A stretch of 32,000 nucleotides of DNA from Candidatus Omnitrophota bacterium (GTDB taxonomy: Bacteria; Omnitrophota; Gorgyraeia; Zapsychrales; JANLHA01): positions 2,790,001 through 2,822,000 of the forward strand of contig OY759724.1 of the NCBI GenBank assembly GCA_963662715.1, given 5' to 3'. The notes below the pieces were generated by a model. The model ran no database searches. It worked only from the letters and a program-made list of their open reading frames with translations, and was not told the DNA's origin. Numbering within the stretch: the stretch's first letter is position 1; each line of letters begins with the position of its first letter. The position numbers and the translations under genes are program-made. Below are positions 2,459 through 18,467 of this stretch, one piece after another.

Positions 2459-5400
2459 ATGTTCAATCTAACCAAATTCCGGGGTATTTCTATTTTAACT
2501 TTATTCTTTTTTATCTGTTCTTGTATCATGCCGTATGTGCAAAGAGCTGAAGCAAATGTAGGATTTGTAGTCTTGTATGTTTATGCCTTGCTTTTCCCTG
2601 GTTCGTGGCCGTCCGGAGGGACGAATCTGGGCAGCGGCAACTCAAGCAGCGGCTCAGGTTCCGGCAGCGGCGGTTCACAAAACGGCCCCCAAAACCCGCA
2701 GACCCTCGATAAAGACTGTCCCAACGGGGATTGTGTGGGGATGTGGTCAAGCCCGAATCCTGTCTCTTACTACAGCGGGCAGGAGAGTTTCAGCCACGTG
2801 GATTTAACAATCCCCGGCCTTGGCATGGATGTGGTCATTGCCCATTCCTATAAAAGTGTGTTTGACTTTAATAATCAGTTCGGCTACGGCTGGATGCTGA
2901 ATTATTACGGCCGTCTCATCCCCCTGTCAAACGGCAACGTCACCGTTATTCTGGGAGAGGACAGCAGCGTCAATACGTTCACCTATTCCGGGGGCGAATT
3001 TATCCCGCCTTACGGCGTGTTCCAGGAATTAAAACAGAACAGCGGCGGCACCTGGACTCTCACCAAAGAGCACGGGAAACAATATCATTTTGACTTGAAC
3101 GGCAATTTGGCTTCTATAAAAGACCGTAACGGCAACGAGATCAAGTTTACCTACTCGATCGGGACATATCCTATCCTTGACAGCGGTACCGGAGACGTTC
3201 TGGCCAATGATTACCGCCTCCTGCACATTACGGATACGCTTACCCGTAACATTGATTTGGTGTATAACCCGTCCGGGCGCCTGGCCGCGATTTATGACCC
3301 CCTGGGCCGTTCCGTGACGTATTCCTACGACCCTAATACGGATGACCTTCTGTCCATAACCCTGGAAGGCGTGAGCCCGTATCCTTCGGGGCTCAGCAAG
3401 CAGTTTACTTATAATGCCGACCATAATCTGGAAAGCGTTACGGATGCCAAGGGCCAGACCTATTTGGTGAACCATTATGATACAGACCAAAGGGTGTACC
3501 AGCAGGATTACGGCAACGGCAGTATTCTCATGGATTATGATGATGTCTTCGGCACAACAACGGTGACCGACCGTAAAGGGAATGTTAAAAAATATACTTT
3601 CACGTCCAGCGGGGAAGCGCAGATCATCGAAACCTTTACCAGCGGGCTGCGCGCCGGGGAGCCGGGCAGTTACAATACCTATTATGCCTTTAACTATCTT
3701 TCCAAACCTGTCCAGGTCAAGTACCCGAACAAAAACGGCATTATGTACACCTATGATACGTCTAATTTAGATCCCCGCGCAAAAGGCAATCTCCTGCAGA
3801 TCAAGCGTGTGGCGGATATGGACGATCCCTATACCACGGATGTCCTGGCCACGAACATGACCTATGAACAGGAGTACAATCAGGTCAGCACGGTTACAGA
3901 CCCGGAAGGCAATATCGTGACCTATGTCTATGATTATCAGCTTATGACCTCGGACCCCCGTTTCGATGACAAGGGAAATCTGGCAAGGATCATTTATCCT
4001 GCGGTGAACGGCCAGACCCCTGTCATTGACTATACGTACAATCAATACGGCCAGGTGACGGAGATCGAAGACCCGAACGACAATATCACCCAGTATACTT
4101 ATTATGCCTCCAGCGGGCTTGTGTATCAAATCATTCAGGACCCGGGCGGGATCAATGCGGTCACCACCTTCACCTACGATACGTACTTAAACATCGATAC
4201 GATCACTGATCCGAACGGGCACACCACGGATTTTGATTATAATGAAATCGGCTGGCTCATGGAGACCACGAACCATCTGGGGTACAGCACGCGCTACACC
4301 TATGATGCCAACGGGAATGTCACGCAAATCGACCGGCAGGCGAATGCCTCCGGGACAAGCTGGCAGACCACAATATATACTTATGATATTCTAAATCATG
4401 TCCGGACCATGACCGATCCGCTGGGCCGGATAACCACCTATACCTATGACAATGAAGAGAACCTCATATCTGTCGAAGACGCGGAAACGAATGTCACCAC
4501 TTACGAATATGATGAACGGAATCTTTTGTTCACCGTCACGGACGCCAACACGCCAGGAGGTGTCACCCGTTATGATTATGACTGGAACGGCAACCTGCAG
4601 AAAATTCATGACGCTAACGGGCACATCACGGAATATCAGTATGACGAATTCAACCGCCTGGTGACAACCATATACCCGGATTCATCCGCCACCTGGTTTG
4701 AATATGACGATAATTCCAACCTCGAGCTGCAGACACTCGCCAGCGGCGAGACCGTCACCTATGAATATGATGAATTGAACCGGCTGACGGACAAACGTTT
4801 CCCGTCTCATCCGTCTCTGGATGTGTCCTATTCCTATGATGTGGGGTCGCGTATGCTGACGGCCGATACCGCGGCCGGCGCGATAAGCTTCACTTATGAC
4901 CATCTGAACCGCGTGGATGCCACGACCCAGACCGTCGCCGGGCTGGCGGCCAAGACCGTTGATTATACGTATGACCAGGCCGGCAACCGCACGCAGGTGG
5001 AGTATCCTTCAACGAAAACCGTTGTTTATGATTATGATGAGATCAACCGCTTGACCAATGTGGAGGTGGACGGCGCGTCTTTGGTGGATTTTACCTATGA
5101 TACTTTAAACCGGCGGACATTAAAGAGTTTTACGGCCGCGCCATCGCTGGATACCTCCTACGCTTATAATAATGATAACACCCTGGACAATATGGTGAAT
5201 CAAATCAACGGCGGGGCTGTGATTTCGCAGTATAGTTATGCGTATGATGGGGTAGGCAACCGTATCGGCGTGATAACGGCCGCTGATAACATCACCTATA
5301 ATTACAATGATATTTATGAGCTTACGTCCGTGACCGGCAGTCAAAGCCATGCTTATGATTATGATGGTGTTGGCAATCGCCTGACCGCCGATAGCCTTAC

Positions 5401-6487
5401 TTACGTCCCGGATGAATTGAATCAGTATGATTCGGTGGACAGTGTGACCTTTACCTATGATCAGACCGGCAACCTTACCGATGACGGGAATAATACTTAC
5501 AGTTATGATGAAGAGAACCGGTTAACGGACGCAAGTAATGTTTCCCATGTCGCGATCTATCAGTACGATGCCTTTAACCGGCGGGTTAGCAAGAATGTCG
5601 ATGGGGTTGTGACGTATTTTGTGTATGATGGCGATGAGGTGATAGCGGAATACGATTCGTCAGGTATTCTTGAATCTGAGTATGTGTATTCCGATAACAT
5701 CGATGAAGTTTTAACGATGGACAGGAACCTCACAACGTATTATTATCATTATGATGGTTTGGGATCGGTCACGGAAGTGACTGACCTTGCCGGTGCTGTT
5801 CAGGAATCGTATAAATATGATCCTTACGGACAGCCTTCGTTCTTTGACGGTTCTGGTTCACCTTTGACCGAGAGCTCAATCGGCAATCCCTACATGTTCA
5901 CCGGAAGAAGATGGGACAATGAGACGGATATCTATTATTATCGGGCTCGAATGTATGACCCTACGATAGGGAGATTTTTGCAGAGAGATCCGATTGGGTA
6001 TGAAGATGGGATGAATTTGTACAGTTATACAAAAAATAATCCCATCAATTATGTCGATCCATCTGGCGAGATTACTTTATATTTCGCTGTAGTTTCTGGT
6101 ATAATGATATTGGTCCTTGTCACTGAATTTGCAGTGCTTTCTATCGCAGGCTCAATGCAATTATTGGACGAACCAAAGAAATGTGAAATACTGCGTGCAG
6201 TCAAGTATGTTTTGAATGAAATAAGTAACCTTTTTTCAGAAGATTTAACGGGTAAAGAAAATTTGTATAAAATAGAAGACTATGGTGAAATAGGTGAAAT
6301 TAAAAATGCAGACCTTGCAGAAAAAGAGAAAGATCCCTCTTTTTCCCCTGCTGCTGATTTAGCAGCAACTGTTTTATTAGATTCTGATCCTGATGAAATT
6401 ACATTGTTTTACCCTTTACCTATACCAAAACCACGATATTTTGGAACATATGATTTTAATAGGGGATTTGTACCACTACCTAAGTAG
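2459..6487 (+). CDS. Rhs/YD-repeat polymorphic toxin (1342 aa). It has an N-terminal signal/anchor and Gly/Ser linker, a YD-repeat shell, an Rhs-associated core ending NPINYVDPSGE, then a ~139-aa C-terminal toxin tip of unknown family.
   Basis: Dozens of YD repeats (YTYD..GN...). Core signature YYYHYDGLGSVTEVTD..YDPYGQ..NPYMFTGRRWDNETDIYYYRARMYDPTIGRFLQRDPIGYEDGMNLYSYTKNNPINYVDPSGE. No PAAR, VgrG or LXG motifs seen. Confidence 0.95.
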   Translation: MFNLTKFRGISILTLFFFICSCIMPYVQRAEANVGFVVLYVYALLFPGSWPSGGTNLGSGNSSSGSGSGSGGSQNGPQNPQTLDKDCPNGDCVGMWSSPNPVSYYSGQESFSHVDLTIPGLGMDVVIAHSYKSVFDFNNQFGYGWMLNYYGRLIPLSNGNVTVILGEDSSVNTFTYSGGEFIPPYGVFQELKQNSGGTWTLTKEHGKQYHFDLNGNLASIKDRNGNEIKFTYSIGTYPILDSGTGDVLANDYRLLHITDTLTRNIDLVYNPSGRLAAIYDPLGRSVTYSYDPNTDDLLSITLEGVSPYPSGLSKQFTYNADHNLESVTDAKGQTYLVNHYDTDQRVYQQDYGNGSILMDYDDVFGTTTVTDRKGNVKKYTFTSSGEAQIIETFTSGLRAGEPGSYNTYYAFNYLSKPVQVKYPNKNGIMYTYDTSNLDPRAKGNLLQIKRVADMDDPYTTDVLATNMTYEQEYNQVSTVTDPEGNIVTYVYDYQLMTSDPRFDDKGNLARIIYPAVNGQTPVIDYTYNQYGQVTEIEDPNDNITQYTYYASSGLVYQIIQDPGGINAVTTFTYDTYLNIDTITDPNGHTTDFDYNEIGWLMETTNHLGYSTRYTYDANGNVTQIDRQANASGTSWQTTIYTYDILNHVRTMTDPLGRITTYTYDNEENLISVEDAETNVTTYEYDERNLLFTVTDANTPGGVTRYDYDWNGNLQKIHDANGHITEYQYDEFNRLVTTIYPDSSATWFEYDDNSNLELQTLASGETVTYEYDELNRLTDKRFPSHPSLDVSYSYDVGSRMLTADTAAGAISFTYDHLNRVDATTQTVAGLAAKTVDYTYDQAGNRTQVEYPSTKTVVYDYDEINRLTNVEVDGASLVDFTYDTLNRRTLKSFTAAPSLDTSYAYNNDNTLDNMVNQINGGAVISQYSYAYDGVGNRIGVITAADNITYNYNDIYELTSVTGSQSHAYDYDGVGNRLTADSLTYVPDELNQYDSVDSVTFTYDQTGNLTDDGNNTYSYDEENRLTDASNVSHVAIYQYDAFNRRVSKNVDGVVTYFVYDGDEVIAEYDSSGILESEYVYSDNIDEVLTMDRNLTTYYYHYDGLGSVTEVTDLAGAVQESYKYDPYGQPSFFDGSGSPLTESSIGNPYMFTGRRWDNETDIYYYRARMYDPTIGRFLQRDPIGYEDGMNLYSYTKNNPINYVDPSGEITLYFAVVSGIMILVLVTEFAVLSIAGSMQLLDEPKKCEILRAVKYVLNEISNLFSEDLTGKENLYKIEDYGEIGEIKNADLAEKEKDPSFSPAADLAATVLLDSDPDEITLFYPLPIPKPRYFGTYDFNRGFVPLPK

Positions 6488-6493
6488 AATATT

Positions 6494-6727
6494 ATGACAG
6501 ATAATGAATTTGACTTGTTAAGAGCTCAAAGTGATAAAAATAAAATTAACGGATTATTTATTGCTGGAATAATTGGTAGTATAGGTTTTATTTCTCTAGC
6601 TTGTTATATGTTTACCCAAATTGACATAGCTACAGGAGCATCTATTGTTATGTTAATTTGGGGATTAGTAATACTGATCACAACAACAAGCATTTTTTTG
6701 TCTTATAAGATAAAAAACAAAAAATAA
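6494..6727 (+). CDS. putative cognate immunity protein, 77 aa with two predicted TM helices
   Basis: Starts 6 nt after the Rhs stop. Hydrophobic stretches GLFIAGIIGSIGFISLACYMF and ASIVMLIWGLVILITTTSIFLSY. AT-rich like the toxin tip. Confidence 0.6.
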   Translation: MTDNEFDLLRAQSDKNKINGLFIAGIIGSIGFISLACYMFTQIDIATGASIVMLIWGLVILITTTSIFLSYKIKNKK

Positions 6728-6736
6728 GATGTTAAA

Positions 6737-6773
6737 GAGACACAATACTTAACTCGGCCAATCCCCACCGCCG
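6737..6773. repeat. cassette-end repeat (right part), copy after the main immunity gene
   Basis: AGAGACACAATACTTAACTCGGCCAATCCCCACCGCC matches 12513-12551 and 14103-14142. A degenerate left part, ATGAAAGTACCAGTCC, lies at 6805-6820. Confidence 0.7.
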
Positions 6774-6918
6774 TTGCCAGATTTGGCTTTAGTGATCATG
6801 TTGAATGAAAGTACCAGTCCAAAATATTAAAATACTACAGCTAAAATGTTGATAACTTTGCTGTAGTTTTCATTTTTTGCTCTTTTTCATATAGGACATT
6901 TCGAAAAGCATCCAATAG

Positions 6919-7380
6919 TCTGATCCTACGATTGGGAGGTTTTTGCAAAGAGATCCAGTAGGATACTTTGATTCGATGAGTCTATATGAATATGCCGATA
7001 GTGTCGGAAAACCTATTGTAGAAACAAATCTGTACTCTTATACCGGAAATGACCCCGTAAATTGGATAGATCCTTTGGGTTTGTTGAAGAGGGATCATCG
7101 TTTCTGGGAGAATGTCAAAGAAGGGGTAATGAATAATCTTAAAAAGAAGTATGCTAAGTTTAAGAAAGAGAATCCCTGTGAAGAAGCTCCGCCAATTGCC
7201 GGGGAAGATTTGGAGAGCTCATTAGATAAATTTGCAGAAGCTTTTGCCGATGAATTAACAGAGAAAGAATTCGGTTTCTTGGGCAGGGGCGTTGAAAAAA
7301 ATAGTGATGCTGTTAAGGAACGCTTAAAAATTAAATATCCTGATTGGCCATGGGAAGAATGGGACATAATTTTTAAATGA
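6919..7380 (+). CDS. orphan Rhs C-terminal cassette 1: short core-homology (DPTIGRFLQRDPVGY...NDPVNWIDPLGL) plus a ~99-aa helical toxin tip of unknown family
   Basis: The frame opens at 6919, directly after a stop. About 100 nt are homologous to main rhs around 5955-6060. DPLGL lies at 7069-7083. There is no ATG; the only possible start is TTG at 6943. Confidence 0.8.
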   Translation, partial: SDPTIGRFLQRDPVGYFDSMSLYEYADSVGKPIVETNLYSYTGNDPVNWIDPLGLLKRDHRFWENVKEGVMNNLKKKYAKFKKENPCEEAPPIAGEDLESSLDKFAEAFADELTEKEFGFLGRGVEKNSDAVKERLKIKYPDWPWEEWDIIFK

Positions 7381-7757: not shown

Positions 7758-9521
7758 GTCCGTAATTTCAAAAAGGGATTTTCCTGTAAAATAATATATA
7801 AAACAATAATGTCGTCGAGATTATGAAGTATAATAGAGGTGTCCGAATAAAAGAAAGGAGCCTCTTGAATGTTAAAGAATCCCCAAAACCAAGCCTCATT
7901 TTTTGATGCTGAGTATATCTGCGAAGACTTAATCCCTGCCGATAGTTACTACCGCAAGTTCAGGGAAATAGTCTTCCCGCTCATGGATGAGTTGGATTTT
8001 GAATCCATGTATTGTCAGGATAATGGCCGTCCGCCGATCTCGCCGAAGTTGTTGGCCATGGCGTTGCTGTTGCAATTCCATAAGAATTTGTCAGATCGGG
8101 GAATGGAGCGGGCATGCATGTATGATATTGAGATCAAGTATGCCTTGGGATTAAAACTCAACGAGCGACCGTTCGATCATTCAAGTCTGGGAGATTTTAG
8201 GAAGCGATTGTATGAGCATGGACAAAGCAAGAGGGTTTTTGACCAGATACTCAACAAGTTGATTGAGGCAGATTTGATAGAGCGTGATGAAATTCAGCGG
8301 ATTGATGCGACGCATATGATTGCTGATATTGCGATACCGACGGTGGTGGCGTTGGTCAAGAAAGGCATTCGTGAAATATTAAAACCGTTGAAAGGCCAAA
8401 AGCCCGAGTTATACGCTAAGGTTATAAAAAATATCGATGTCGAAGAATATACGCGGGAAAAAGTCAACCAGGCGGATGAAGGACGGCTGGATATTGAGAA
8501 ACGGCAAAGAAAGCTGGTCAAGGTCGTTACCGATGCGCGAAACCTTTTGAGAGAAGTCGAGGATGTTAACATGAGTCGTGGATTGCGAAAGCGGATTGAA
8601 TTGCTTCAGAGGATACTGCAGGAGAACGTTAAGGAAGCCGACGAGGGCAAGATTGAGGAACGCAAATATAAAGATAAACCGCCGGACTTGCTGGTAAGTC
8701 CGATTGACGAAGACGCGCGGTATGGCGCAAAGTCGGATACAAAAAGATTTATGGGATACAAGGCAAATGTGACAGAGAGTGTGAAAAATCGGTTGATCAC
8801 AAATATTGAAGTGATGCCCGGAAACAGACGGGATGGTGAGCCGACAGTGAAGATGGTGGTGGAGCAGAAACTGAACGGATTAGTCCCTAAGAAGCTGGTA
8901 GGAGACGCGGCGTACGCGGACGGGATGTATAGAAAATTGCTCAAAGATAATGAAACCCTGCTGGTCGCACCGTTAAGAAAAGTTAATGAAAGTGCACAAA
9001 AAATTTACCCCAAAAGCATGTTTTATTACGATGAGAAAACAGGAACAGTAACGTGTCCGCAAGGCGTAAAAACAAAAACATGTTTTGAAGATCGTCGCCA
9101 TGGGTTAAAGCAATTTCATTTTCCGATGAGCGCGTGCAATCAGTGTGGCGTTCAGAAAGAGTGTACAAAAGCAAAAGAAGGACGCCGGACGATAGGGATC
9201 AGTATCTTTAATAAAGAGCTGCGCGAAGCCGAAGTATACAACGAAACAGAACAATTCAAAAAGGACATGAAGCTGCGTCCACCGATTGAAGGAAAGCTGT
9301 CGGAGTTGACGCGGTATCACGGCTTAAGGCGCGCACGATATCGAAGGTTATATAAAGTGCGGCTTCAGGGTTATTTTACAGCGGCTGCGGTGAACATCAA
9401 GCGGTGGTTCAAGCTGATTATCGAAGGAATAGCAAGGCACCCGGAGGTTGCGATGGGCTTTTAGAAGATTGAAGGGCGTAAAATAAGTGCGCCCCAAAAA
9501 TAATGCTCTTTGAAACTGGAC
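7758..9521 (+). mobile_element. IS1182-family insertion sequence (boundaries tentative)
   Basis: Contains the single 531-aa transposase. The candidate imperfect terminal IRs are GTCCGTAATTTCAAAAAGGGATT (7758-) and GTCCAGTTTCAAAGAGCATT (reverse complement of -9521). It separates immunity gene 7377-7754 from a 5'-truncated Rhs orphan. Confidence 0.5.
7869..9464 (+). CDS. IS1182/IS5-like DDE transposase
   Basis: The N-terminus FFDAEYICEDLIPADSYYRKFREIV...GRPPISPKLLAMALLLQFHKNLSDRGMERACMYDIEIKYALGL matches the InsH-N/IS1182 pattern. The C-terminal Cys-rich region and LRRARYRRLYKVRLQGYFTAAAVNIKR are typical of the family. Confidence 0.8.
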   Translation: MLKNPQNQASFFDAEYICEDLIPADSYYRKFREIVFPLMDELDFESMYCQDNGRPPISPKLLAMALLLQFHKNLSDRGMERACMYDIEIKYALGLKLNERPFDHSSLGDFRKRLYEHGQSKRVFDQILNKLIEADLIERDEIQRIDATHMIADIAIPTVVALVKKGIREILKPLKGQKPELYAKVIKNIDVEEYTREKVNQADEGRLDIEKRQRKLVKVVTDARNLLREVEDVNMSRGLRKRIELLQRILQENVKEADEGKIEERKYKDKPPDLLVSPIDEDARYGAKSDTKRFMGYKANVTESVKNRLITNIEVMPGNRRDGEPTVKMVVEQKLNGLVPKKLVGDAAYADGMYRKLLKDNETLLVAPLRKVNESAQKIYPKSMFYYDEKTGTVTCPQGVKTKTCFEDRRHGLKQFHFPMSACNQCGVQKECTKAKEGRRTIGISIFNKELREAEVYNETEQFKKDMKLRPPIEGKLSELTRYHGLRRARYRRLYKVRLQGYFTAAAVNIKRWFKLIIEGIARHPEVAMGF

Positions 9522-9561
9522 CAAAAGTCCAACGGCGGAAAAATACCGGGTTTTCAGACGG

Positions 9562-10050
9562 TATCATGTCCACAATAATCCGATAAATTTTTTAGATCCC
9601 TTAGGATTAGCAGACGTTAATTTAATTAGTCCTCGGAGTAAGAAGGAGAAAACAAATTATGATTTAATGAAACAATATAATCCTAAGCACTTTTTTGTTG
9701 TAGGGGCACATGGAACATATGATGCAGAGAAAAACGTATTTCATGTTGTAGACAACAGAAGGCGTAGGCGCCGTTATCTAACTCCACAAGAATTAGCCCA
9801 AATAATTGTATATTCTGGAATTAAAGAAGGCGAGGTTGTATTATTAGCACTTTGTGAATCTGACGCTGGTGAAGCCTTTGAGCTGTATGTCCAACAATTA
9901 GCAGATGCTCTCAGAGAATTAACTGAAGGGAAAAATATGGTTGTTGTTGCTCCTGCTGGATATTTAAGGTTAATAAAGTTTAGAACAACAGATGTAATAT
10001 CAATAGTTGAAGATGGGGGTTGGGAACCATATGTCGGTAGAGAAAATTAA
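9562..10050 (+). pseudogene. orphan Rhs C-terminal cassette 2, 5'-truncated next to the IS1182 element: ...YHVHNNPINFLDPLGL plus a ~147-aa tip with a candidate His/Cys dyad
   Basis: In frame with the tracked ORF 9667-10050. PxxxxDPLGL lies at 9595-9609. Tip motifs: FFVVGAHGT and VVLLALCESDAG. Confidence 0.7.
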
Positions 10051-10060
10051 ATGAGGTTTA

Positions 10061-10399
10061 ATGATGATGCTTGAAACGAAGAGATATTTACTAAGGACAT
10101 TGTATACTTTAGTTCTAGTTTTTTTGGGCTTTATTTTTTTTGTCCCCCTGAAAACTGATCTATATAAACCTAACTGTCTTTCTTCGTTTAGTGAGAGGAG
10201 AAAGAAAAAATTAGCCATGTCGGGTAATTATGATGCCGTTAAGGATTTGTTTGATCACTATTTAGTATGCCGTCAAGATGTTAATACTGCACTAAAATGG
10301 ATGGAAATAAGTGCCAATCAGGGTAATGTTGATGCTCAATTTACTTTTGCATATTGGAATAAACTTAGGGATAAGAATAAAGCATGTAAATGGTTCTGA
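10061..10399 (+). CDS. putative immunity protein for orphan 2 (N-terminal TM helix plus a Sel1-like repeat); 3' end replaced by the IS end
   Basis: ALKWMEISANQGNVDAQFTFAYW fits the Sel1/TPR-like repeat consensus. The TGA stop (10397-10399) is the first three bases of the IS terminal repeat TGACCCACCCCCC. Confidence 0.55.
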   Translation: MMMLETKRYLLRTLYTLVLVFLGFIFFVPLKTDLYKPNCLSSFSERRKKKLAMSGNYDAVKDLFDHYLVCRQDVNTALKWMEISANQGNVDAQFTFAYWNKLRDKNKACKWF

Positions 10400-10461
10400 C
10401 CCACCCCCCAAAAGTTGAGCCACTTTTTGTGATAGAATAATGATAACAGAAAGGGGCAAAA

Positions 10462-10737
10462 ATGGGTAAAAGATTCAAATCAGAAGAAATAATTACGAAA
10501 TTACGAGAAGTTGAAATACACCTTGGTAAAGGGCTGGACACCGGAGATGCCTGCCGACAAGCGGGCATATCGGAACAGACCTATTACCGTTGGCGCAAGG
10601 CATACGGCGGGATGAAAATAGATCAAGCCAAGAAGTATAAAGAGCTAGAACGGGAGAATACCCGATTAAAGAAACTGGTGGCTGACTTATCATTAGATAA
10701 CGCTATTTTGAAGGAAGTCAATGAGGGAAACTTCTAA
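10462..10737 (+). CDS. IS3-family transposase OrfA (HTH)
   Basis: [77 protein letters not shown] resembles IS407-group OrfA. Confidence 0.85.
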
Positions 10738-10759
10738 GCCCGGCCAAGAAACGCCGGGC
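10725..10759 (+). promoter_or_regulatory. programmed -1 ribosomal frameshift signal: slippery heptamer G_GGA_AAC plus a 7-bp GC hairpin
   Basis: GGGAAAC (10725-10731) is in X_XXY_YYZ register with orfA. The orfB frame opens at 10725. The stem is GCCCGGC (10738-10744) / GCCGGGC (10753-10759), 6 nt downstream. Confidence 0.65.
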
Positions 10760-10763
10760 GATT

Positions 10764-11615
10764 ATGTGGGCGAAGGAGAAATTCCCCAAAGTATCAGAAA
10801 GGCGGTTGTGTAAAATTCTTAGCCAAGCAAGATCAACACAGCAATATAGATGTTCAGGCCGATATGATGAAGGAGCATTAGTTGAGGCTATGATCAATAT
10901 GGTCAAGCAATATGGACGGTATGGATACCGAAAAGTTGCTGAATTGTTACGCGAATCGGGCTGGATGCCATTAAATGATAAACGAGTCGAACGTTTATGG
11001 AGACGGGAAGGTCTTAAAGTTCCGATGAAACAACCTAAACGAAGGAGGTTATGGCTGAATGACGGTTCCTGCATCCGATTACGGCCAGAACATCACAACC
11101 ACGTCTGGAGTTATGATTTTGTTCATGACCGGACATCAAATGGCCGACCAATAAAGATGTTAACGATCATTGATGAGTATAGCCGGGAATGCCTGGCCAT
11201 AGAAGTTGGGCGCAAACTCAATTCCAGGAATGTGATTGATGTTTTATCTCGATTGTTTATTGAAAAAGGAGTGCCGTTATATATTCGTTCGGATAATGGG
11301 CCGGAATTTATCGCTGAACGCGTCCGTTGGTGGTTGAGAAGGATCGGAGTGGAAACGTTGTATATTGAACCGGGAAGCCCTTGGGAAAATGGATATATTG
11401 AATCCTTTAACGGGCGACTACGGGATGAGTTGTTAAATCTGGAAATTTTTGATACATTGTATGAAGCTCAGGTGTTGGTGGAACGCTGGCGGTGGGAATA
11501 TAATACGATCCGTCCGCATGGATCATTGGGTTATAAGCCTCCGGCACCGGAAGCTATTCAACCAAGATGGCTTCAGCCATCTCCGTTAAACTCTCACAAC
11601 TTTTGGCACAACTAA
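10764..11615 (+). CDS. IS3-family transposase OrfB (rve integrase-core DDE); probably made as an OrfAB fusion by -1 frameshifting
   Basis: WSYDFVHD...RSDNGPEF...[17 protein letters not shown] is a DDE/rve pattern. It lies in the -1 frame relative to orfA. Confidence 0.85.
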
Positions 11616-11628
11616 TGGGGGCAGGTCA

Positions 11629-11991
11629 GGCTCGATTGGATTGTCGTTTTTAAGGGCAGCGAAGGCGAGGGGAAAAAATCCAATATTAGGCAAACAACGA
11701 GTAGGAAGTGGATTAAAGGATGATTTTGTAAAACCTATATATGATGATAGTGGAAGAATAATAAAAGAGTTTCCTGCTAAAGCCAAAGCACATGGATTCC
11801 CCGATATTATTGACAATTTTGCTTCTGGGGCTAAAAAATTTAGACTTAGAAAAGGAGTCAATTTATACCAATTAGAAGGATCATATAATGGTGTTGAAGG
11901 AAGATTTGAATGGATTGTTGAACAAGGTAAAGTAACTCATCGAATGTTTGTTCGTGGAGGAAAAATAACAGGAGGACCTATTGTACCATGA
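11629..11991 (+). pseudogene. orphan toxin tip A: only the last 15 codons of the shared pre-toxin module (GSIGLSFLRAAKARG) remain, fused to a ~105-aa tip of unknown family
   Basis: 11629-11674 matches 13442-13487 and 15730-15775 almost exactly and begins immediately at the IS right end. Tip motifs: AHGFPDIIDNFA and GVEGRFEWIVEQGKVTHRMFVRGG. Confidence 0.7.
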
Positions 11992-12530
11992 AAGCTGATT
12001 TAAAAGAGTTTGAAGATATCTTTCCTATTAACTGGACTACCTTACTACTTGGATTAGAGGGGCCTGGGAATTATTTGAATGTTATTTCTACACTTGATGT
12101 AGTTAATTATGTAGAGCAAAAAGTTAATAAAGATGCAATTATTTGTAATCAGCTTGTGATGAGTTTATCTAATTATTCTGATGATAAGACGGCTTTGATT
12201 GCTTGTTTAAGAGAATTAATAAAGACTGAAGATGAAGATATGGATGTTGAACTTAAGAAATGGCAATTGTATTTATTGAAAAAGACTATTGCCTCATTAC
12301 CAGAGGATCCTATTCATGGTTTGATTATGTTAACAGATTTTTGGGAGAAATTTGATTATCCTGAAAATAGCCCTCATAAAGTACAAGGAAAGGATGTCTC
12401 AACTCATCCCAATGACTATTATACTAAGGATAATTATATTAGAATTGTACAACAACATGAAAATTGGCTAAAAAATGAAATTGTAAAGAGGATGAAAGTG
12501 CCAGTCCCCAGAAAGGGACATAATACTTAA
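11988..12530 (+). CDS. putative immunity protein for tip A (180 aa, cytoplasmic, unknown family)
   Basis: ATGA overlap with the tip A stop. AT-rich. The last 12 codons (MKVPVPRKGHNT) are encoded by the cassette-end repeat. Confidence 0.55.
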   Translation: MKADLKEFEDIFPINWTTLLLGLEGPGNYLNVISTLDVVNYVEQKVNKDAIICNQLVMSLSNYSDDKTALIACLRELIKTEDEDMDVELKKWQLYLLKKTIASLPEDPIHGLIMLTDFWEKFDYPENSPHKVQGKDVSTHPNDYYTKDNYIRIVQQHENWLKNEIVKRMKVPVPRKGHNT

Positions 12531-12754
12531 TTCGGCCAATCCTCACCGCCGATCCGATCTTTTTAACCTTTAGTTTTGTCGTTGTTCAGATGCAATGCAT
12601 TCGTTCACGGTTCCAAGTTCACTCATGCATATACATCTGAACCGGTACCCGTTCTTCGCGGAAGATACATTTGATCTTTGATAAATTAATATCCTGTTTT
12701 GTTGCTCTCTGACGAATCGTATCCAAGAGAGAGTTGTTATCACTTGTCTCTGAC
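12495..12754. repeat. cassette-end repeat plus ~250-bp inter-cassette spacer, copy 1 (uninterrupted)
   Basis: About 98% identical by eye to 14101-14192 + 15343-15499. It contains the small hairpin GTCCC-CAGAAA-GGGAC and the empty IS target CATT at 12598-12601. Confidence 0.85.
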
Positions 12755-12823
12755 CTGTCGGTCAGTTTGCTGCTTTTGCAGCAACAAATCTCCCTGCCGG
12801 AGCTTTGAGACAAGTTTTTTACT

Positions 12824-13780
12824 TTGGACAGGAACTCCAACACGTATTATTATCATTATGACGGTAATGGTTCAGTGACAGAAGTGACTGATGCCTCTGG
12901 GAATATACAAGAAAGTTATACATACAGTCCTTATGGCCAGTCTTTGATCTTTGATGATTTGGGCGCACCGTTAACCTCCAGTAATATTGAAAATCCGTAT
13001 ATGTTTACTGGACGTCGCTGGGATGACGAGACGGGCATTTATTATTACCGGGCGAGGATGTATGATCCGGCGATAGGAAGGTTCCTGCAGAGAGATCCGG
13101 TGGGTTATGCGGATAGTATGAACCTGTATTCCTACGCGGGGAATTCCCCGGTGAATGCCTCTGATCCTTTGGGGTCAAGGATTAAGTGGAACTGGACGGG
13201 GGCGTGGAGGTCTATAAGAAACAATGCCGGTGCTTTTCTTGTCGCGGCTATCGGTTGTGCTATTTTGCCAGAAACTGCTTTAGCAGCGCTGGCCGGAAGT
13301 TTTGCCGCACAGATATTGGCAGCCGCAGGGCTGGCGGGGTTAGGCTGGCAAGCCCAGCAAGTTCTTAACCGGTTTCGTTCAAAGAAGCTGTATGATGATC
13401 CTCTCACCACCGAGATGCTCATGAACGTCTTCATCGGTTTAGGCTCGATTGGATTATCGTTTTTAAGGGCAGCGAAGGCGAGGGGAAGAGTAAGAGGATA
13501 TCGTGCTGTTTCTAATGCAGAATTAGACGATATAGCAGAGTATAAGGGCTTTAGACCTGATCCTAAAGGTCGGTCAATGGAAGATAAGTGGTTTTCTGAA
13601 ACTAGAGAAGGGGCTGAGAAATTTTCAAATATGTATCCAGAGTTGGAAAACATAGTCGAAGCCGAAGTCCCAAAATCAGTTTATAACAAAGCTTATCACC
13701 ATCCCAATATTGATAATACAGGGCCTGGTTTTGCTATTCAACCAGAACAACTTCCTAAAGTAAAGCCTATTATAGAGTGA
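12824..13780 (+). CDS. orphan Rhs C-terminal cassette B: ~115 aa of Rhs core homology (to ...NSPVNASDPLGS), a ~105-aa hydrophobic pre-toxin module, and a ~97-aa toxin tip B
   Basis: DRNSNTYYYHYDGNGSVTEVTD...YYYRARMYDPAIGRFLQRDPVGY parallels main Rhs residues around 5710-6070. DPLGS lies at 13163-13177. The only possible start is TTG. Confidence 0.85.
   Translation: MDRNSNTYYYHYDGNGSVTEVTDASGNIQESYTYSPYGQSLIFDDLGAPLTSSNIENPYMFTGRRWDDETGIYYYRARMYDPAIGRFLQRDPVGYADSMNLYSYAGNSPVNASDPLGSRIKWNWTGAWRSIRNNAGAFLVAAIGCAILPETALAALAGSFAAQILAAAGLAGLGWQAQQVLNRFRSKKLYDDPLTTEMLMNVFIGLGSIGLSFLRAAKARGRVRGYRAVSNAELDDIAEYKGFRPDPKGRSMEDKWFSETREGAEKFSNMYPELENIVEAEVPKSVYNKAYHHPNIDNTGPGFAIQPEQLPKVKPIIE
13213..13487 (+). 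repeat. shared pre-toxin module, copy in cassette B (encodes IRNNAGAFLVAAIGCAILPETALAALAGSFAAQILAAAGLAGLGWQAQQVLNRFRSKKLYDDPLTTEMLMNVFIGLGSIGLSFLRAAKARG)
   Basis: Near-identical to 15501-15775 (about 10 mismatches by eye). Similarity stops exactly after the AKARG codons. Confidence 0.9.
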
Positions 13781-13788
13781 GGTGTCAT

Positions 13789-14085
13789 ATGTTGATTTTA
13801 GAAGCAGCTGTCGTTTGGATTAAACCAGAGTTTGGTGGTAGATCAATTAAACCTTTAATAGGTTTAAGACCGATCATTAGATTTCAGAAATACATCTCGG
13901 AATGGTTAAGTACTGCATGGGATGTTGAGATTATTGATCTTGATATCGATAATGACGATTGGTCTGGCAAAGTCAAAATGAAATTTTCTGGGAATGCTAC
14001 ACCAAAAAAAGAATGGCTGAAAAAAGGAGAATTGATTGAATTGTTAGATGCTTACAGAGTGATTGCTATAGGGAAAATAATTTAA
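13789..14085 (+). CDS. putative immunity protein for tip B with EF-Tu domain III-like sequence (98 aa)
   Basis: A GAGG Shine-Dalgarno lies at 13779-13782, and the ATG is 8 nt after the toxin stop. [28 protein letters not shown] compares with E. coli TufA [54 protein letters not shown] compares with [26 protein letters not shown]. Confidence 0.6.
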   Translation: [98 protein letters not shown]

Positions 14086-14100
14086 CGAAGAAATAAATAG

Positions 14101-14192
14101 AGAAAGGGACACAATACTTAATTCGGCCAATACTCACCGCCGATCCGATCTTTTCAACCTTTAGTTTTGTCGTTGTTCAGATGCAATGCATT
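14101..14192. repeat. cassette-end repeat plus spacer, copy 2, left part (interrupted by IS copy 1)
   Basis: Matches 12511-12601 with 3 mismatches. It ends with CATT, the duplicated target. Confidence 0.85.
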
Positions 14193-14206
14193 TGTAATGA
14201 CCCTAG

Positions 14207-14998
14207 TTAAGCAAGGATTTTTTTGTGTAGATCGAGTTCTTTGTTAATCCATCTTTTGTAAAACTCTTCAGGCGTAGCGAAGAATAATGCCTGATGAGGG
14301 AAATCGGTGTTGTAATCGTTGATCCAACGCTTGAAGTCATCTTGAAGATCAAATGGGTTGTCCCATTCATTGATCCAAATGAAATCTTCTTTGATTCTGC
14401 GGATGACGCGTTCGGTGTCAGCATTGCCTTTGGGGTTGGACCAGGTTGAGAAGATCTGCTTGATGCCGGCCAGTGAACAATTAAGCCTGAAGCGCCCGCT
14501 GGTGGGCTGACAGCCATTGTCCGAGATCAGGTGCAGGTCATGATTCAGTGTGTCTTTGATGCCGTTTGGGAATCGGTTGTTGATGGCCATTTCCAGGGCA
14601 TCCAGCCAGTCATCAGTCTTTGACTGGATGTTGAGGCTATAGCCGATAATTTCTTTGGTATACCAGTCTAGGACGATGGTCAGATAGAACCAGCCCCAGG
14701 TCGCCAGTTTGATTTTTGTCATATCGATACCCCAGAATTGATTGGGGTGAGAAGCTCGTGGTTTCCGGCGGAGGTTGCCACGCTTGGCCTTCAAGCGATC
14801 GTTGGGTTGAACCGTTAATTGATTTTCTTGCATGAGGCGTTGGACACAATTTTTGCCAATTTTGTAATGTTTACGGTTGTTTAAATAGGCCCAGACTGAA
14901 CGGTATCCCCAGAGGGGATGTTGCTTTTTAATTTGTCGGATTTTGACTAAATGTTTTTGGTCTTGTTCGATACGCTTTAGAGAACGGCGTCTTTTCAT
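14207..14998 (-). CDS. IS3-family transposase OrfB (rve/DDE)
   Basis: WGIDMT...LISDNGCQP...NADTERVIRRIKED is a DDE triad pattern. It lies in the -1 frame relative to orfA, with an ATGA overlap. Confidence 0.85.
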   Translation of the reverse strand: MKRRRSLKRIEQDQKHLVKIRQIKKQHPLWGYRSVWAYLNNRKHYKIGKNCVQRLMQENQLTVQPNDRLKAKRGNLRRKPRASHPNQFWGIDMTKIKLATWGWFYLTIVLDWYTKEIIGYSLNIQSKTDDWLDALEMAINNRFPNGIKDTLNHDLHLISDNGCQPTSGRFRLNCSLAGIKQIFSTWSNPKGNADTERVIRRIKEDFIWINEWDNPFDLQDDFKRWINDYNTDFPHQALFFATPEEFYKRWINKELDLHKKILA

Positions 14999-15300
14999 AA
15001 CTCGTACTCGTTTTTTTTTAGTTCAACGGTCAAGTCGCCGATGATGCGTTTGAGTTTGGCGTTTTCTTTTTCAAGACGTTGCTCTTTCTGGGACTGTTGT
15101 TTGATGTCAAAGGCCATATGGCATTCTTTGAGGAACTGGTCGCGCCATTTGTAATATTGGGTTTGGCCAATTTGGTATTTGTTACAAAGTTTACTGATGT
15201 CGATTTTCCCGCTGAGGCCTTCAAGCACGATTTGGGTCTTTTGTTGGCTGGTCCATTGGCGTTTTTTCATGGGAATTGGGCTCCTTTCCTTGGAACTCAA
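14995..15300 (-). CDS. IS3-family transposase OrfA (HTH); an A9 slippery run just before its stop (T9 at 15011-15019 on the + strand)
   Basis: KRQWTSQQKTQIVLEGLSGKIDISKLCNKYQIGQTQYYKWRDQF is an HTH_Tnp pattern. The -1 frame is open from the A-run into orfB. Confidence 0.85.
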   Translation of the reverse strand: MSSKERSPIPMKKRQWTSQQKTQIVLEGLSGKIDISKLCNKYQIGQTQYYKWRDQFLKECHMAFDIKQQSQKEQRLEKENAKLKRIIGDLTVELKKNEYEL

Positions 15301-15342
15301 TTCTACACCATTTGTTTAAATTTGTTAACTAGGGTCACTATA

Positions 15343-15499
15343 CATTCGTTCACGGTTCTAAGTTCACTCATGTATATACATCTGAACCGGTACCCGTTCT
15401 TCGCGGAAGATACATTTGATCTTTGATAAATTAATATCCTGTTTTGTTGCTCTCTGACGAATCGTATCCAAGAGAGAGTTGTTATCACTTGTCTCTGAC
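15343..15499. repeat. inter-cassette spacer, copy 2, right part
   Basis: Matches 12598-12754 with 2 mismatches. Confidence 0.85.
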
Positions 15500-16092
15500 A
15501 TATAAGAAACAATGCCGGTGCTTTTCTTGTCGCGGCTATCGGTTATGCTATTTTGCCAGAAACTGCTTTAGCAGCGCTGGCCGGAAGTCTTGGAGCGCAG
15601 ATATTGGCAGCCGCAGGGCTGGCGGGGCTAGGCTGGCAAGCCCAGCAAGTTCTTAACCGGTTTCGTTCAAAGAAACTGTATGATGATCCTCTCACGACCG
15701 AGATGCTCATGAACGTCTTCATCGGTTTAGGCTCGATTGGAGTGTCGTTTTTAAGGGCAGCGAAGGCGAGGGGAAGTGTTCAATTTAGAAGTAAGTTGAG
15801 TACTCAGAAACAAATGAGACATTTAAGAGGAACAGCTGCTCCTAATAGAAGTTATTTTGATTCTATTGATGATGCTCAAGCGGTTCTAGATGCTTATAAT
15901 AGTGGAAATTATAAATTAATTAGTCAGAATCCGGCACAAAATACTGTAACTATTGAAGTAAAGAATATTACTGGTAGATATGTAAATATAGACAACCCTA
16001 AAGGACTTCCGGACTTAAATTTACCAACAAATAAATTCATGATTCAATCATCAAAAGCACCCAAAGTTGTTCCTGTTAATCCATATAAGTGA
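15499..16092 (+). pseudogene. orphan cassette C: pre-toxin module (no Rhs core homology, no ATG) plus a ~105-aa toxin tip C, possibly the polymorphic-toxin type 50 (Ntox50-like) RNase family
   Basis: The frame opens right after TGA 15496-15498. 15501-15775 is near-identical to 13213-13487. Tip: KQMRHLRGTAAPNRSYFDSIDDAQAVLDAYNSGNYKLI...ITGRYVNIDNPKG...TNKFMIQSSKAPKVVPVNP. Confidence 0.65.
15501..15775 (+). repeat. shared pre-toxin module, copy in cassette C
   Basis: See 13213-13487. Confidence 0.9.
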
Positions 16093-16099
16093 GCTAGAT

Positions 16100-16408
16100 A
16101 TGTTAAAAATTAAGGATTTAGAATTAGTCGGAGCATTTCAAAGAGCACTTCTATTTAATATCTCTGCATCAATGCGTTTTATTTCTTGTGAAATAATAAA
16201 TGAGGATATTCTTCAGGTTTATATTTATTTTGACAAGGATCCAACTGAAGAGGAGTTAGATCTCATTTATTCTGTTGCAGGTGAAGTTTGCGGGGATTTC
16301 CCGGGACTTAATAATAGTGATGTGAAACATTTTGTTAATAATAAGGATTTTAATTCTTTAAAACACCTTCGAATATTAGTTTATGCAAGATTTGAAAAAA
16401 ATGAATGA
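16100..16408 (+). CDS. putative immunity protein for tip C (102 aa, unknown family)
   Basis: The ATG lies 7 nt after the tip C stop. AT-rich. Followed by the cassette-end repeat left part at 16414-16440. Confidence 0.5.
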   Translation: MLKIKDLELVGAFQRALLFNISASMRFISCEIINEDILQVYIYFDKDPTEEELDLIYSVAGEVCGDFPGLNNSDVKHFVNNKDFNSLKHLRILVYARFEKNE

Positions 16409-16413
16409 GAGAT

Positions 16414-16440
16414 AAAAGTGCCAGTCCCCAAAAAGGGACA
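16414..16440. repeat. cassette-end repeat, left part only
   Basis: AAAAGTGCCAGTCCCCAAAAAGGGACA matches 12495-12520. Confidence 0.7.
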
Positions 16441-16602
16441 GGGCGTTTTTATGCAGTTGAATAATGCAGGGAAAGAGATATAATATTTATATTCCCCTGA
16501 TGTTTTCCCCGGGTAAACAGAAAGGGGATTTTTTATGCCCAGAGTCGCCAGAAGAGAGGTGTTGTATAACGGGTGTTATGCGCATGTCTGTAATGACCCT
16601 AG

Positions 16603-17394
16603 TTAAGCAAGGATTTTTTTGTGTAGATCGAGTTCTTTGTTAATCCATCTTTTGTAAAACTCTTCAGGCGTAGCGAAGAATAATGCCTGATGAGGGAAAT
16701 CGGTGTTGTAATCGTTGATCCAACGCTTGAAGTCATCTTGAAGATCAAATGGGTTGTCCCATTCATTGATCCAAATGAAATCTTCTTTGATTCTGCGGAT
16801 GACGCGTTCGGTGTCAGCATTGCCTTTGGGGTTGGACCAGGTTGAGAAGATCTGCTTGATGCCGGCCAGTGAACAATTAAGCCTGAAGCGCCCGCTGGTG
16901 GGCTGACAGCCATTGTCCGAGATCAGGTGCAGGTCATGATTCAGTGTGTCTTTGATGCCGTTTGGGAATCGGTTGTTGATGGCCATTTCCAGGGCATCCA
17001 GCCAGTCATCAGTCTTTGACTGGATGTTGAGGCTATAGCCGATAATTTCTTTGGTATACCAGTCTAGGACGATGGTCAGATAGAACCAGCCCCAGGTCGC
17101 CAGTTTGATTTTTGTCATATCGATACCCCAGAATTGATTGGGGTGAGAAGCTCGTGGTTTCCGGCGGAGGTTGCCACGCTTGGCCTTCAAGCGATCGTTG
17201 GGTTGAACCGTTAATTGATTTTCTTGCATGAGGCGTTGGACACAATTTTTGCCAATTTTGTAATGTTTACGGTTGTTTAAATAGGCCCAGACTGAACGGT
17301 ATCCCCAGAGGGGATGTTGCTTTTTAATTTGTCGGATTTTGACTAAATGTTTTTGGTCTTGTTCGATACGCTTTAGAGAACGGCGTCTTTTCAT
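16603..17394 (-). CDS. IS3-family transposase OrfB
   Basis: Identical to 14207-14998. Confidence 0.85.
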   Translation of the reverse strand: MKRRRSLKRIEQDQKHLVKIRQIKKQHPLWGYRSVWAYLNNRKHYKIGKNCVQRLMQENQLTVQPNDRLKAKRGNLRRKPRASHPNQFWGIDMTKIKLATWGWFYLTIVLDWYTKEIIGYSLNIQSKTDDWLDALEMAINNRFPNGIKDTLNHDLHLISDNGCQPTSGRFRLNCSLAGIKQIFSTWSNPKGNADTERVIRRIKEDFIWINEWDNPFDLQDDFKRWINDYNTDFPHQALFFATPEEFYKRWINKELDLHKKILA

Positions 17395-17696
17395 AACTCG
17401 TACTCGTTTTTTTTTAGTTCAACGGTCAAGTCGCCGATGATGCGTTTGAGTTTGGCGTTTTCTTTTTCAAGACGTTGCTCTTTCTGGGACTGTTGTTTGA
17501 TGTCAAAGGCCATATGGCATTCTTTGAGGAACTGGTCGCGCCATTTGTAATATTGGGTTTGGCCAATTTGGTATTTGTTACAAAGTTTACTGATGTCGAT
17601 TTTCCCGCTGAGGCCTTCAAGCACGATTTGGGTCTTTTGTTGGCTGGTCCATTGGCGTTTTTTCATGGGAATTGGGCTCCTTTCCTTGGAACTCAA
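17391..17696 (-). CDS. IS3-family transposase OrfA (A9 slippery run = T9 at 17407-17415)
   Basis: Identical to 14995-15300. Confidence 0.85.
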   Translation of the reverse strand: MSSKERSPIPMKKRQWTSQQKTQIVLEGLSGKIDISKLCNKYQIGQTQYYKWRDQFLKECHMAFDIKQQSQKEQRLEKENAKLKRIIGDLTVELKKNEYEL

Positions 17697-17864
17697 TTCT
17701 ACACCATTTGTTTAAATTTGTTAACTAGGGTCACTATATGTCATATCACGGTCGATCCGTAAAATGAAACTGTTCAGAGATGAAGCAGATTTTCGGGAGA
17801 TACGCCACATAAAATTATATCAAGGGAACGGGATGGTGTCATAAGTCCCTAAAAAGGCGAATAA

Positions 17865-18467
17865 ATGAAAGACTATTCAGAAAAATCCATATTAAGGAAA
17901 ATATTGAGTTATAAAAGTCAATTTAAGAAAGAAAAACAAAAATATGGTCTTTACAGCGATGGTTATGGAAAGAGATTTATCCTCTTTGAGTTATATTATC
18001 TATTGGGTGACCATGAGAAGAGTAAAGAGTATTTTTCTTGGTATACGAAAGAGTTCCCTGACGATGGCTGTGATCCTATTGCACTGCTGTTTTGGTCGTT
18101 GATTTTGTATCAAATGGGAGAAAAAGAAGCCGCGAGATATAAACTTGCGGAAATGATGCTTGCGAATGTTTATATAATTCCGTCAATTCTTGAGGAAGCA
18201 GTTAAAGAATATGATATGTGGCACGGATCGAACACATGTGAGTTATCATATTTTCAATATATCCCGCAGCCTGCTATTGAAAGGATAAATTTTGAAGAGA
18301 AAGAATGGATGCGGGAATTATATTATTCCAAGGATTTCGAAGAGATTAGAAATAGGCATATTGAAATTCATAAAATTTTAAGAGATACTCGTGATATTGA
18401 GAAAAGAGGAATTCTTTGTGATGAAGATGGAGGGTTATTAAAAAAGTTGGATTGTAAAAAAGAATAA
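17865..18467 (+). CDS. hypothetical protein, helical/TPR-like, AT-rich
   Basis: 200-aa ORF with no recognisable catalytic motif. A helical-repeat-like stretch runs GDHEKSKEYFSWY...GEKEAARYKLAEMM. Confidence 0.4.
   Translation: MKDYSEKSILRKILSYKSQFKKEKQKYGLYSDGYGKRFILFELYYLLGDHEKSKEYFSWYTKEFPDDGCDPIALLFWSLILYQMGEKEAARYKLAEMMLANVYIIPSILEEAVKEYDMWHGSNTCELSYFQYIPQPAIERINFEEKEWMRELYYSKDFEEIRNRHIEIHKILRDTRDIEKRGILCDEDGGLLKKLDCKKE

Follow-up and report, generated by a model that had tools for sequence, protein, structure and literature searches.

The window analyzed here, a 32,000-nucleotide (nt) stretch of contig OY759724.1 from a Candidatus Omnitrophota bacterium (assembly GCA_963662715.1, positions 2,790,001 to 2,822,000), carries an Rhs/YD polymorphic-toxin array at 2.4-17.8 kb on the + strand. 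Comparison of its cassettes with each other and with related loci indicates that in some Sec-type Rhs/YD toxins a module of ~105 amino acids (aa) accounts for the N-terminal half of the C-terminal region, the part predicted to be cleaved off. Its boundary, ..L(R/K)AAKA(R)G, is fixed and is followed by unrelated AT-rich toxin/immunity pairs. We are highly confident of this as a purely architectural statement, namely that a pre-toxin module lies between DPxG and the toxin domain and ends in a fixed exchange boundary. As to function, we lean toward the reading, by analogy with known toxins, that the shared segment is a lineage-restricted membrane-insertion or entry domain used with interchangeable cytoplasm-acting toxins; this function is inferred.

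The locus contains YD repeats, a core ending in DPxG, variable toxin and immunity regions and orphan cassettes, as expected of an Rhs/YD polymorphic-toxin locus. It consists of the main rhs gene and five later cassettes, six in all, with a small open reading frame (ORF) in the immunity-gene position 3' of each. Three of the later cassettes, designated A, B and C, carry all or part of the module:

11629-11991, + strand: cassette A, a module remnant with its tip
11629-11673, + strand: end of the cassette A module, its last 15 codons (GSIGLSFLRAAKARG), from the exact pattern match and translation
12824-13780, + strand: cassette B, a complete orphan
12824-13174, + strand: orphan Rhs core end of cassette B, ending DPLG/S, 71 % identical to main rhs 5709-6008, with a weak RHS Pfam match
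13175-13486, + strand: complete module of cassette B, 104 aa (aa 118-221, SRIKWNW...AAKARG), guanine-cytosine (GC) content 52 %
15502-16092, + strand: cassette C, core end deleted
15502-15774, + strand: module part of cassette C, 91 codons (IRNNAG...AAKARG), core end gone and a stop directly upstream

A 45-nt sequence, GGCTCGATTGGATTGTCGTTTTTAAGGGCAGCGAAGGCGAGGGGA, encoding GSIG(L/V)SFLRAAKARG, occurs at 11629-11673, 13442-13486 and 15730-15774 with 0, 1 and 1 mismatches, respectively, and is also represented as repeat family D7. The pattern had zero matches in 100 dinucleotide-preserving shuffles, and 0 were expected by chance. The initial annotation had described three cassettes that are alike up to AKARG at 11629, 13442 and 15730, and the pattern match at 0-1 mismatch agrees with this. 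The shared peptide that it gave holds for A and B (GSIGLSFL) but not for C, which encodes GSIGVSFL. Its claim of complete divergence from the next codon was borne out: identity among A, B and C over the 90 nt 3' of the junction is 24-31 %, the random level, and the tips start with KNPILGK.. (A), RVRGYRAVS.. (B) and SVQFRSK.. (C). On the other side of the junction, cassettes B and C have 279 nt in common (13213-13491 vs 15501-15779) at 96 % identity, in line with the ~275 nt and ~10 mismatches first estimated. This tract and the 45-nt repeat establish that the junction segments are homologous at the nucleotide level. As annotated, the module of cassette B directly follows the DPLGS motif (DPLGS at nt 13163-13177, module from nt 13175). 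The left edges of copies A and C were considered as further recombination junctions and rejected, that of A being the end of an insertion sequence (IS) and that of C a deletion.

The same arrangement is present in related contigs from metagenomes or metagenome-assembled genomes (MAGs), L001-L004 and L006. There the module follows Rhs core ends (..DPMGG/RIKWNW..), often several times per locus, and YD repeats lie 5' of it in L001, L003 and L004. Eleven cassette copies, from the window and L001-L004, were compared across the junction. They show 71-100 % nucleotide identity over the 180 nt before AAKA, with 95-100 % within a genome (window and L001), and 21-41 % after the junction, except for pairs with the same tip. 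Nine unrelated tips were found, all beginning after AAKA(R)G or AAKAS; in four other contigs the junction falls on this same codon. Module and tip variants have been reassorted. The tip GSLATPKV.. is joined to an N-half of type I in L002 and of type II in L004. The tip GIANTV.. is found behind type II in L001 and, in P0010/L006, behind a window-like variant, and type I is joined to at least four different tips. This reassortment therefore indicates exchange at the AAKA(R)G boundary and, further, within the module itself, upstream of the half that is most conserved. The module is reused by different warheads, as had been proposed, and is not tied to one tip family.

The three remaining cassettes of the window are without the module:

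2459-6487, + strand: full-length Rhs/YD toxin gene (main rhs) with N-terminal signal/anchor, DUF6531, YD repeats and Rhs-associated core
6943-7380, + strand: orphan 1, DPLGL at 7069, module-less
about 9520-10050, + strand: orphan 2, DPLGL at 9595, just 3' of the 7869-9464 transposase element, short core-end fragment kept

The product of main rhs matches RHS_repeat (PF05593, 1.4e-63) and DUF6531 (5e-10) in Pfam, and YD_repeat_2x (TIGR01643, 4.7e-44), RHS_core and Rhs_assc_core (TIGR03696, 2e-24) in NCBIfam. Its predicted cleavage motif is DPSGE, at nt 6056, and the corresponding motifs are DPLGL in both orphans and DPLGS in cassette B. Pfam scans of the main Rhs and nine flanking ORFs gave zero matches to T6SS-type (type VI secretion system), PAAR or Eag (DUF1795) domains, and the main gene product therefore looks like a Sec-exported, T6SS-independent Rhs.

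The module-less cassettes diverge right after DPxG and the module cassettes after AAKA(R)G, so that the two nested levels of diversification proposed initially are both found. The break in similarity and composition ~105 codons 3' of DPxG therefore marks a second, nested junction. The organization of Rhs genes into a core and a core extension ('tip') with orphan cassettes was reportedly described by Jackson et al. in 2009. The array resembles such classical core/tip arrays in its orphan cassettes with core-end homology, its AT-rich tips with immunity genes and its sharp junction (Poole et al. 2011; Koskiniemi et al. 2014, PMC3967940), and differs from them in the break at AAKA(R)G. The earlier analogy with a VENN-type junction is a poor fit: VENN is a cleavage site that corresponds to DPxG in Rhs, and nothing indicates cleavage at AKARG. 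The closer analogue is the boundary between entry domain and toxin domain inside CdiA-CT (PMC9424206, PMC11630599).

No Pfam or NCBIfam match, PT-TG included, was found for the module (Pfam at E up to 1), and it is therefore not assignable to PT-TG or another family. PT-TG (PF14449) was also absent from the whole of cassette B at E up to 0.1 (hmmscan). There was no Pfam match to PT-VENN (DUF638) and no VENN motif, and the carrier is an Rhs protein, not CdiA/FHA. Described entry-domain families showed no homology to the module in the Pfam or NCBIfam scans. Word-indexed searches of 5.8 billion proteins returned four proteins that matched the module. A HMMER profile search of 1.84 billion representative proteins yielded six true members, two of which are the window's own cassettes, and the module recurred with variable C-termini and divergence after AAKA(R)G/S, as anticipated. 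Three further HMMER matches (P0011-P0013) were rejected as repeat-protein artefacts, and the word-indexed and HMMER searches thus converged on one small clade. Among 185,579 species genomes scanned, one module locus was found, L004, in a MAG labelled 'uncultured Planctomycetales bacterium', and scans of metagenome and viral collections gave no further module loci. All true homologues follow an Rhs core end wherever upstream sequence is present.

One of the related loci is damaged. In L003 (267-2337, GCA_030153525.1), several frameshifts interrupt the module-bearing Rhs gene, whose tip is spread across two frames; the latter portion of this tip has a weak Ntox37 match (E 0.022). The frameshifts may reflect a pseudogene or assembly errors.

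The module begins with a basic, Trp-rich N-terminus (RIKWNWxGAWxxIRNNA), followed by two adjacent hydrophobic segments split by LP(E/A/K) (LPE in cassette B), an amphipathic charged loop (VLNRFxSKKLYDDPLTTEM), a third hydrophobic segment and the basic end L(R/K)AAKA(R)G. The loop and the next segment, NVFIGLGSIGxS, are invariant among relatives. Kyte-Doolittle 19-residue means peak at 1.9-2.0. Crude Hessa-type sums, which are position-independent, are 2.5-4.1 for the module segments, -2.9 to 3.1 for transmembrane controls from the window and at least 6.9 for soluble controls. On these values the segments are therefore marginally hydrophobic and not classical transmembrane helices. Of the 2-3 membrane helices first predicted, three hydrophobic segments remain, but as marginal ones on simple hydrophobicity scales. 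The glycine-zipper-like AAAGLAGLG, to which the initial annotation had drawn attention, is not conserved, relatives carrying SLAASAGLAWE, and it was rejected as a defining feature of the module.

The ratio of nonsynonymous to synonymous substitution rates (dN/dS) is 0.0-0.15 over the C-terminal 54 codons of the module, with dS of 1 to >3 between lineages and 0.5 between two cassettes of L004. The protein sequence of the module is under strong purifying selection. GC content is 52-59 % in the module (host-like), 31-46 % in the tips and 29-40 % in the immunity genes. In main rhs, which lacks the module in its C-terminus, GC content drops at DPSGE, from 49 % in the core to 34 % in the C-terminus. 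In composition and constraint, the module appears to behave as part of the resident core.

The tips and immunity genes of the three module cassettes are as follows:

11674-11991, + strand: tip A, KNPILGK.., 105 aa + stop, toxin domain without family match, GC 34 %
11988-12530, + strand: immunity A, DUF2247 (Imm38), Pfam 2e-26, soluble, no hydrophobic segment
13487-13780, + strand: tip B, RVRGYRAVS.., 97 aa + stop, putative autonomous toxin domain
13777-14085, + strand: immunity B, soluble, homologue in L004 at 182-490
15775-16092, + strand: tip C, Ntox50, Pfam PF15542 2e-07, above cut-off
16100-16408, + strand: immunity C, soluble

The module-borne tips appear to be autonomous toxins acting in the cytoplasm. 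Ntox50, the family of tip C, is a predicted RNase of the BECR fold (Zhang et al. 2012, PMC3482391). Tip A had no match in Pfam, NCBIfam or PDB sequences; the family of its immunity protein, Imm38 (DUF2247), is one that Zhang et al. (2012, PMC3482391) connect to toxins of the Ntox19 and HNH types. An AlphaFold2 model of tip B had a mean confidence (pLDDT) of 89.5, and its first strand starts from residue 2 past the junction. The best PDB folds, Tpt1, TreTu (the Salmonella Rhs1 toxin) and CC0527, all have the ADP-ribosyltransferase (ART) fold, with weak scores (E 0.09-0.5, TM-score ~0.5). Since these matches are below significance, the assignment of tip B to an ART-like fold is only suggestive. 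Elsewhere, homologues of tip B begin at GYRAVS and are preceded by signal peptides or by other leaders, which confirms the domain boundary. PDB sequence searches with tip A, tip B and the GSLATPKV tip gave nothing useful.

The family of tip B is unannotated and shows the motif G[YF]RAVS..E.DDIA..GFRP.P.G.SM.DKWFSE.R.GAE; some of its members stand alone with signal peptides. The immunity B homologue at 182-490 of L004 lies at the edge of a MAG contig, and the L004 lineage, too, probably has tip B or a relative.

Immunity proteins differ between the two kinds of cassette. All 10 module cassettes (three of them the window's own, seven from related loci, with nine distinct tips) have an immunity ORF without a hydrophobic segment (minimum crude score 7.1-15.2), while 3/3 module-less cassettes of the window have one with a transmembrane or signal-anchor segment (-1.1 to -2.9). 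For nine distinct tips against three, a split this perfect has a probability of 1/220 under random assignment. It is the pattern expected if only toxins that cross the cytoplasmic membrane need the module. Together with the cytoplasmic-type tips, this correlation with immunity localization gives indirect support to an entry or translocation role, which is plausible.

If the module is an entry domain, cleavage at DPLG/S would leave module and tip together, unfolded, in the Rhs shell, which would shield the hydrophobic segments. Upon release at the target cell, the Trp-rich basic N-terminus would bind the membrane interface, and the three marginally hydrophobic helices would insert into the target cytoplasmic membrane. 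Through its invariant loop the module may touch a membrane protein. Possibly with the help of this protein, the basic junction and the tip would then reach the cytoplasmic side, where RNase-type or ART-type tips would act. In sibling cells, the soluble immunity proteins would neutralize the tips.

A number of points weigh against an entry role. On the simple scales applied, the three hydrophobic segments are weaker than typical transmembrane helices, and an AlphaFold2 model of module plus tip B gave helices only at pLDDT 35 and was unusable. Part of the GC contrast between module and tips is due to the Ala/Gly-rich codons of the module. No full-length Rhs in the window carries a module cassette: A and C are truncated remnants, B is an orphan, and the main rhs gene ends in a different C-terminus, so that current expression and delivery of the module cassettes are putative. 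Two homologues of tip B, P0014 and P0020, have signal peptides of their own, so this toxin can be deployed without the module. The immunity correlation comes from a small sample (9 tips vs 3) in one lineage. Finally, the module is a separate, rare family in a very narrow lineage with uncultured hosts, and this rarity limits generality.

Among the alternatives, the one that survives best, though we consider it unlikely, is that the module is a packaging or release adaptor in the Rhs shell of the producer. In that case it might form a lining of the cavity, hold the chain in place for autoproteolysis at DPxG, or serve as a plug or release element, and it would take no part in crossing the target membrane. 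The module does directly follow the cleavage motif, solved Rhs structures show the C-terminal fragment ordered within the shell over its first residues (27 residues in Tse5; PMC10684867), and strong conservation fits interaction with a conserved shell. However, three cassettes of the array, the full-length gene included, have similar core ends and no module, and the module is therefore not needed for Rhs folding or cleavage. An adaptor would also leave the strict pairing with soluble immunity proteins and the hydrophobic, Trp-rich character unexplained.

A divergent PT-TG-like linker, or an element that binds a receptor in the target envelope, in place of a translocation device, seems to us improbable. 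PT-TG is poorly characterized and has been proposed to be a linker or to interact with the envelope (PMC13483458), known pre-toxin domains occupy the same position as the module, and the invariant charged loop could be a binding site. Yet the module gave no match to PT-TG or any other Pfam family even at E up to 1, and by its published description PT-TG is disordered, has a conserved Gly/Asp/Arg loop and does not consist of three hydrophobic helices (PMC13483458). PT-TG, PT-VENN and PT-HINT are alike with the module as conserved domains between a trafficking or repeat region and a variable toxin (PMC3482391; PMC13483458). They differ from it in composition and predicted structure, give no hidden Markov model match, and are set apart by the very narrow lineage of the module.

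We also doubt strongly that the module is itself toxic, as a pore-forming or depolarizing element that would give each cassette two warheads. Its helices are hydrophobic and rich in small residues, and there are precedents in Tse5-CT and in CDI (contact-dependent growth inhibition) ionophore toxins (PMC10684867, PMC11630599). The Tse5 Rhs shell encapsulates and delivers a hydrophobic, membrane-inserting fragment (PMC10684867), and the module would likewise be a hydrophobic fragment held in an Rhs shell after DPxG cleavage. In Tse5, however, the hydrophobic fragment is the toxin, whereas the module is followed by enzymatic toxin domains distinct from it and lacks an immunity partner in the membrane. 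A membrane immunity protein accompanies 0/10 module cassettes, while ionophore toxins, and the hydrophobic main C-terminus in the window, pair with small transmembrane immunity proteins. Absence of hydrophobic segments from the immunity ORFs, and lack of conservation of AAAGLAGLG, set the module apart from pore-forming and ionophore toxins of the Tse5-CT and CdiA-CT EC93 type, the CDI ionophores among which have a conserved glycine zipper.

It is very improbable that the segments act as a stop-transfer anchor, arresting in the inner membrane of the producer and leaving the tip in its cytoplasm, bound by immunity protein. The Sec-type N-terminus of the main Rhs, the lack of T6SS-type domains in Pfam scans of selected window ORFs and basic residues past the third segment, in keeping with the positive-inside rule, would allow it. 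Marginal hydrophobicity with positive crude insertion scores, the basic N-terminal flank, which misfits the topology, and the established Rhs architecture, in which the cleaved C-terminus is encapsulated, argue otherwise. Least credible of all is a recombination tract, that is, nucleotide homology or a relic of recent duplication with no protein function: within-genome identity of 95-100 % (window, L001) would suit it, but dS is saturated between lineages and 0.5 within L004 while the protein is nearly unchanged, and the dN/dS values contradict a mere DNA homology tract.

The entry-domain reading draws most on CdiA-CT, which consists of an entry domain and a toxin, each entry family being joined to several toxin types in exchangeable fashion (PMC9424206, PMC11630599). 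Like CdiA-CT entry domains (Willett et al. 2015; Bartelli et al. 2022, PMC9424206; PMC11630599), the module makes up the N-terminal half of what would be cleaved off as the C-terminal region. One entry-type module is found with many unrelated toxins, nine tips in the present case. CdiA-CT toxins act in the cytoplasm and have soluble immunity proteins, to which the module cassettes are likened by their predicted tips and immunity sequences. In both systems the recombination boundary is nested inside a primary junction, VENN in CdiA and DPxG in Rhs. The carriers differ, a CdiA filament in one case and an Rhs shell in the other, and no sequence relationship was detected. CdiA-CT entry domains are not hydrophobic enough for transmembrane segments (PMC9424206), whereas the module has three marginally hydrophobic helices. 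The two-domain C-terminus with its nested junction is already known from CDI toxins.

Quentin et al. are said to have proposed in 2018 that a Tse6-type effector's own helices insert into the target inner membrane and carry the toxin across. In prePAAR/Tse6-type effectors, RhsA among them (PMC8765631), these helices are N-terminal, lie outside the shell, flank PAAR and need Eag chaperones. The module helices, by comparison, follow the shell on its C-terminal side, and encapsulation would shield them; the main Rhs has no PAAR, and no Eag or T6SS-type Pfam match was found among the scanned ORFs.

A more far-reaching claim, which we offer only tentatively and regard as doubtful, is that T6SS-independent, Sec-exported Rhs toxins cross the inner membrane by means of a self-contained entry device packed in the shell with the toxin. 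The helices would then be hydrophobic enough for insertion in the target and weak enough for the Sec channel of the producer, and the conserved basic junction would be a handle that carries any warhead to the cytoplasmic side.

The array also holds mobile elements and a conserved spacer:

10397-11628, + strand: IS3-family insertion sequence, ORFs 10462-10737 and 10764-11615, ends TGACC..GGTCA, inverted repeats 10408-10426 and 11588-11606
12510-12754, + strand: inter-cassette spacer, the same sequence lying between immunity B and cassette C, where it is IS-split; repeat families D4, D5 and D6
14193-15342, - strand: 1150-bp IS in the spacer between immunity B and cassette C, CATT target duplication, two overlapping transposase ORFs

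Insertion sequences disrupt the array heavily. The IS3-family element is inserted into the module of cassette A, and its right end adjoins the remnant, truncating the module. A transposase element with a DDE_Tnp_1_6 domain (7869-9464) lies directly 5' of orphan 2. The 1150-bp IS has a second copy at 16589-17738 that is 100 % identical to the one at 14193-15342; the identity of the two copies, one of them with the CATT duplication, is a sign that the element transposed very recently inside the array. Cassette C is what a B-type cassette would be minus exactly 458 nt (15340-15501 vs 12595-13212). This deletion removed the Rhs core end and fused the spacer directly to the module codon for IRNNAG; a stop codon in frame lies just upstream. 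The array is either in decay or undergoing reshuffling by IS activity.

A conserved inter-cassette element lies 3' of several immunity genes (6719-6784, 12497-12604, 14088-14195 and 16411-16440). Its core is GGGACAYAATACTTAAYTCGGCCAAT.CYCACCGCCG, preceded after immunity A and C by a GTCCC..GGGAC hairpin, and it could be a terminator or a recombination site.

The first ~30 aa of the main Rhs C-terminus (6071-6487) are strongly hydrophobic (crude score -0.14) and unrelated in sequence to the module, and the C-terminus is followed by a 77-aa ORF with two transmembrane helices (6494-6727). The two are probably a membrane-acting toxin and its membrane immunity protein. The tip of orphan 2 (9595-10050, DPLGL/ADVNL..) has a RRRRRR run and is followed by an ORF with an N-terminal signal-anchor (10061-10399). 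Neither of them had a significant Pfam match; the signal-anchor suggests that the orphan 2 toxin acts in the periplasm. Directly 5' of rhs, 376-2449 encodes a PD40/TolB-like beta-propeller protein and a lipoprotein, the latter matching the Ig-like domain of FlgD weakly, at a score under the Pfam cut-off (E 1.9e-4). These two may be export or display partners of a T6SS-independent Rhs. At the other end, just past the last IS copy, a 200-aa ORF with a weak TPR match only (17865-18467) may be an orphan immunity gene stranded at the array end.

Pre-toxin domains after Rhs repeats have been described before (PMC3482391). What is new is a distinct, unannotated family that is hydrophobic, lies inside the payload of a T6SS-independent Rhs and is cleanly associated with cytoplasmic immunity; the limited literature searched held no account of an Rhs C-terminus that contains a hydrophobic pre-toxin module. 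If the module were only a packaging adaptor, it would still be a new unannotated pre-toxin family, of narrow reach. If it is an entry domain, it would be a small portable element, testable in standard bacteria, and Rhs arrays would diversify at two nested junctions, which matters for the annotation of toxin/immunity boundaries. CDI toxins solve entry into the cytoplasm with a modular entry domain, and the module, exchanged among at least nine unrelated toxins, holds the equivalent position in Rhs payloads, for which the route of the encapsulated toxin into the target cytoplasm is largely unknown (PMC10684867). Should T6SS-independent Rhs toxins indeed carry a self-contained entry device, the module family would be its first recognizable example, and a strict rule linking module and target location would make the route of Rhs payloads to the cytoplasm directly testable.

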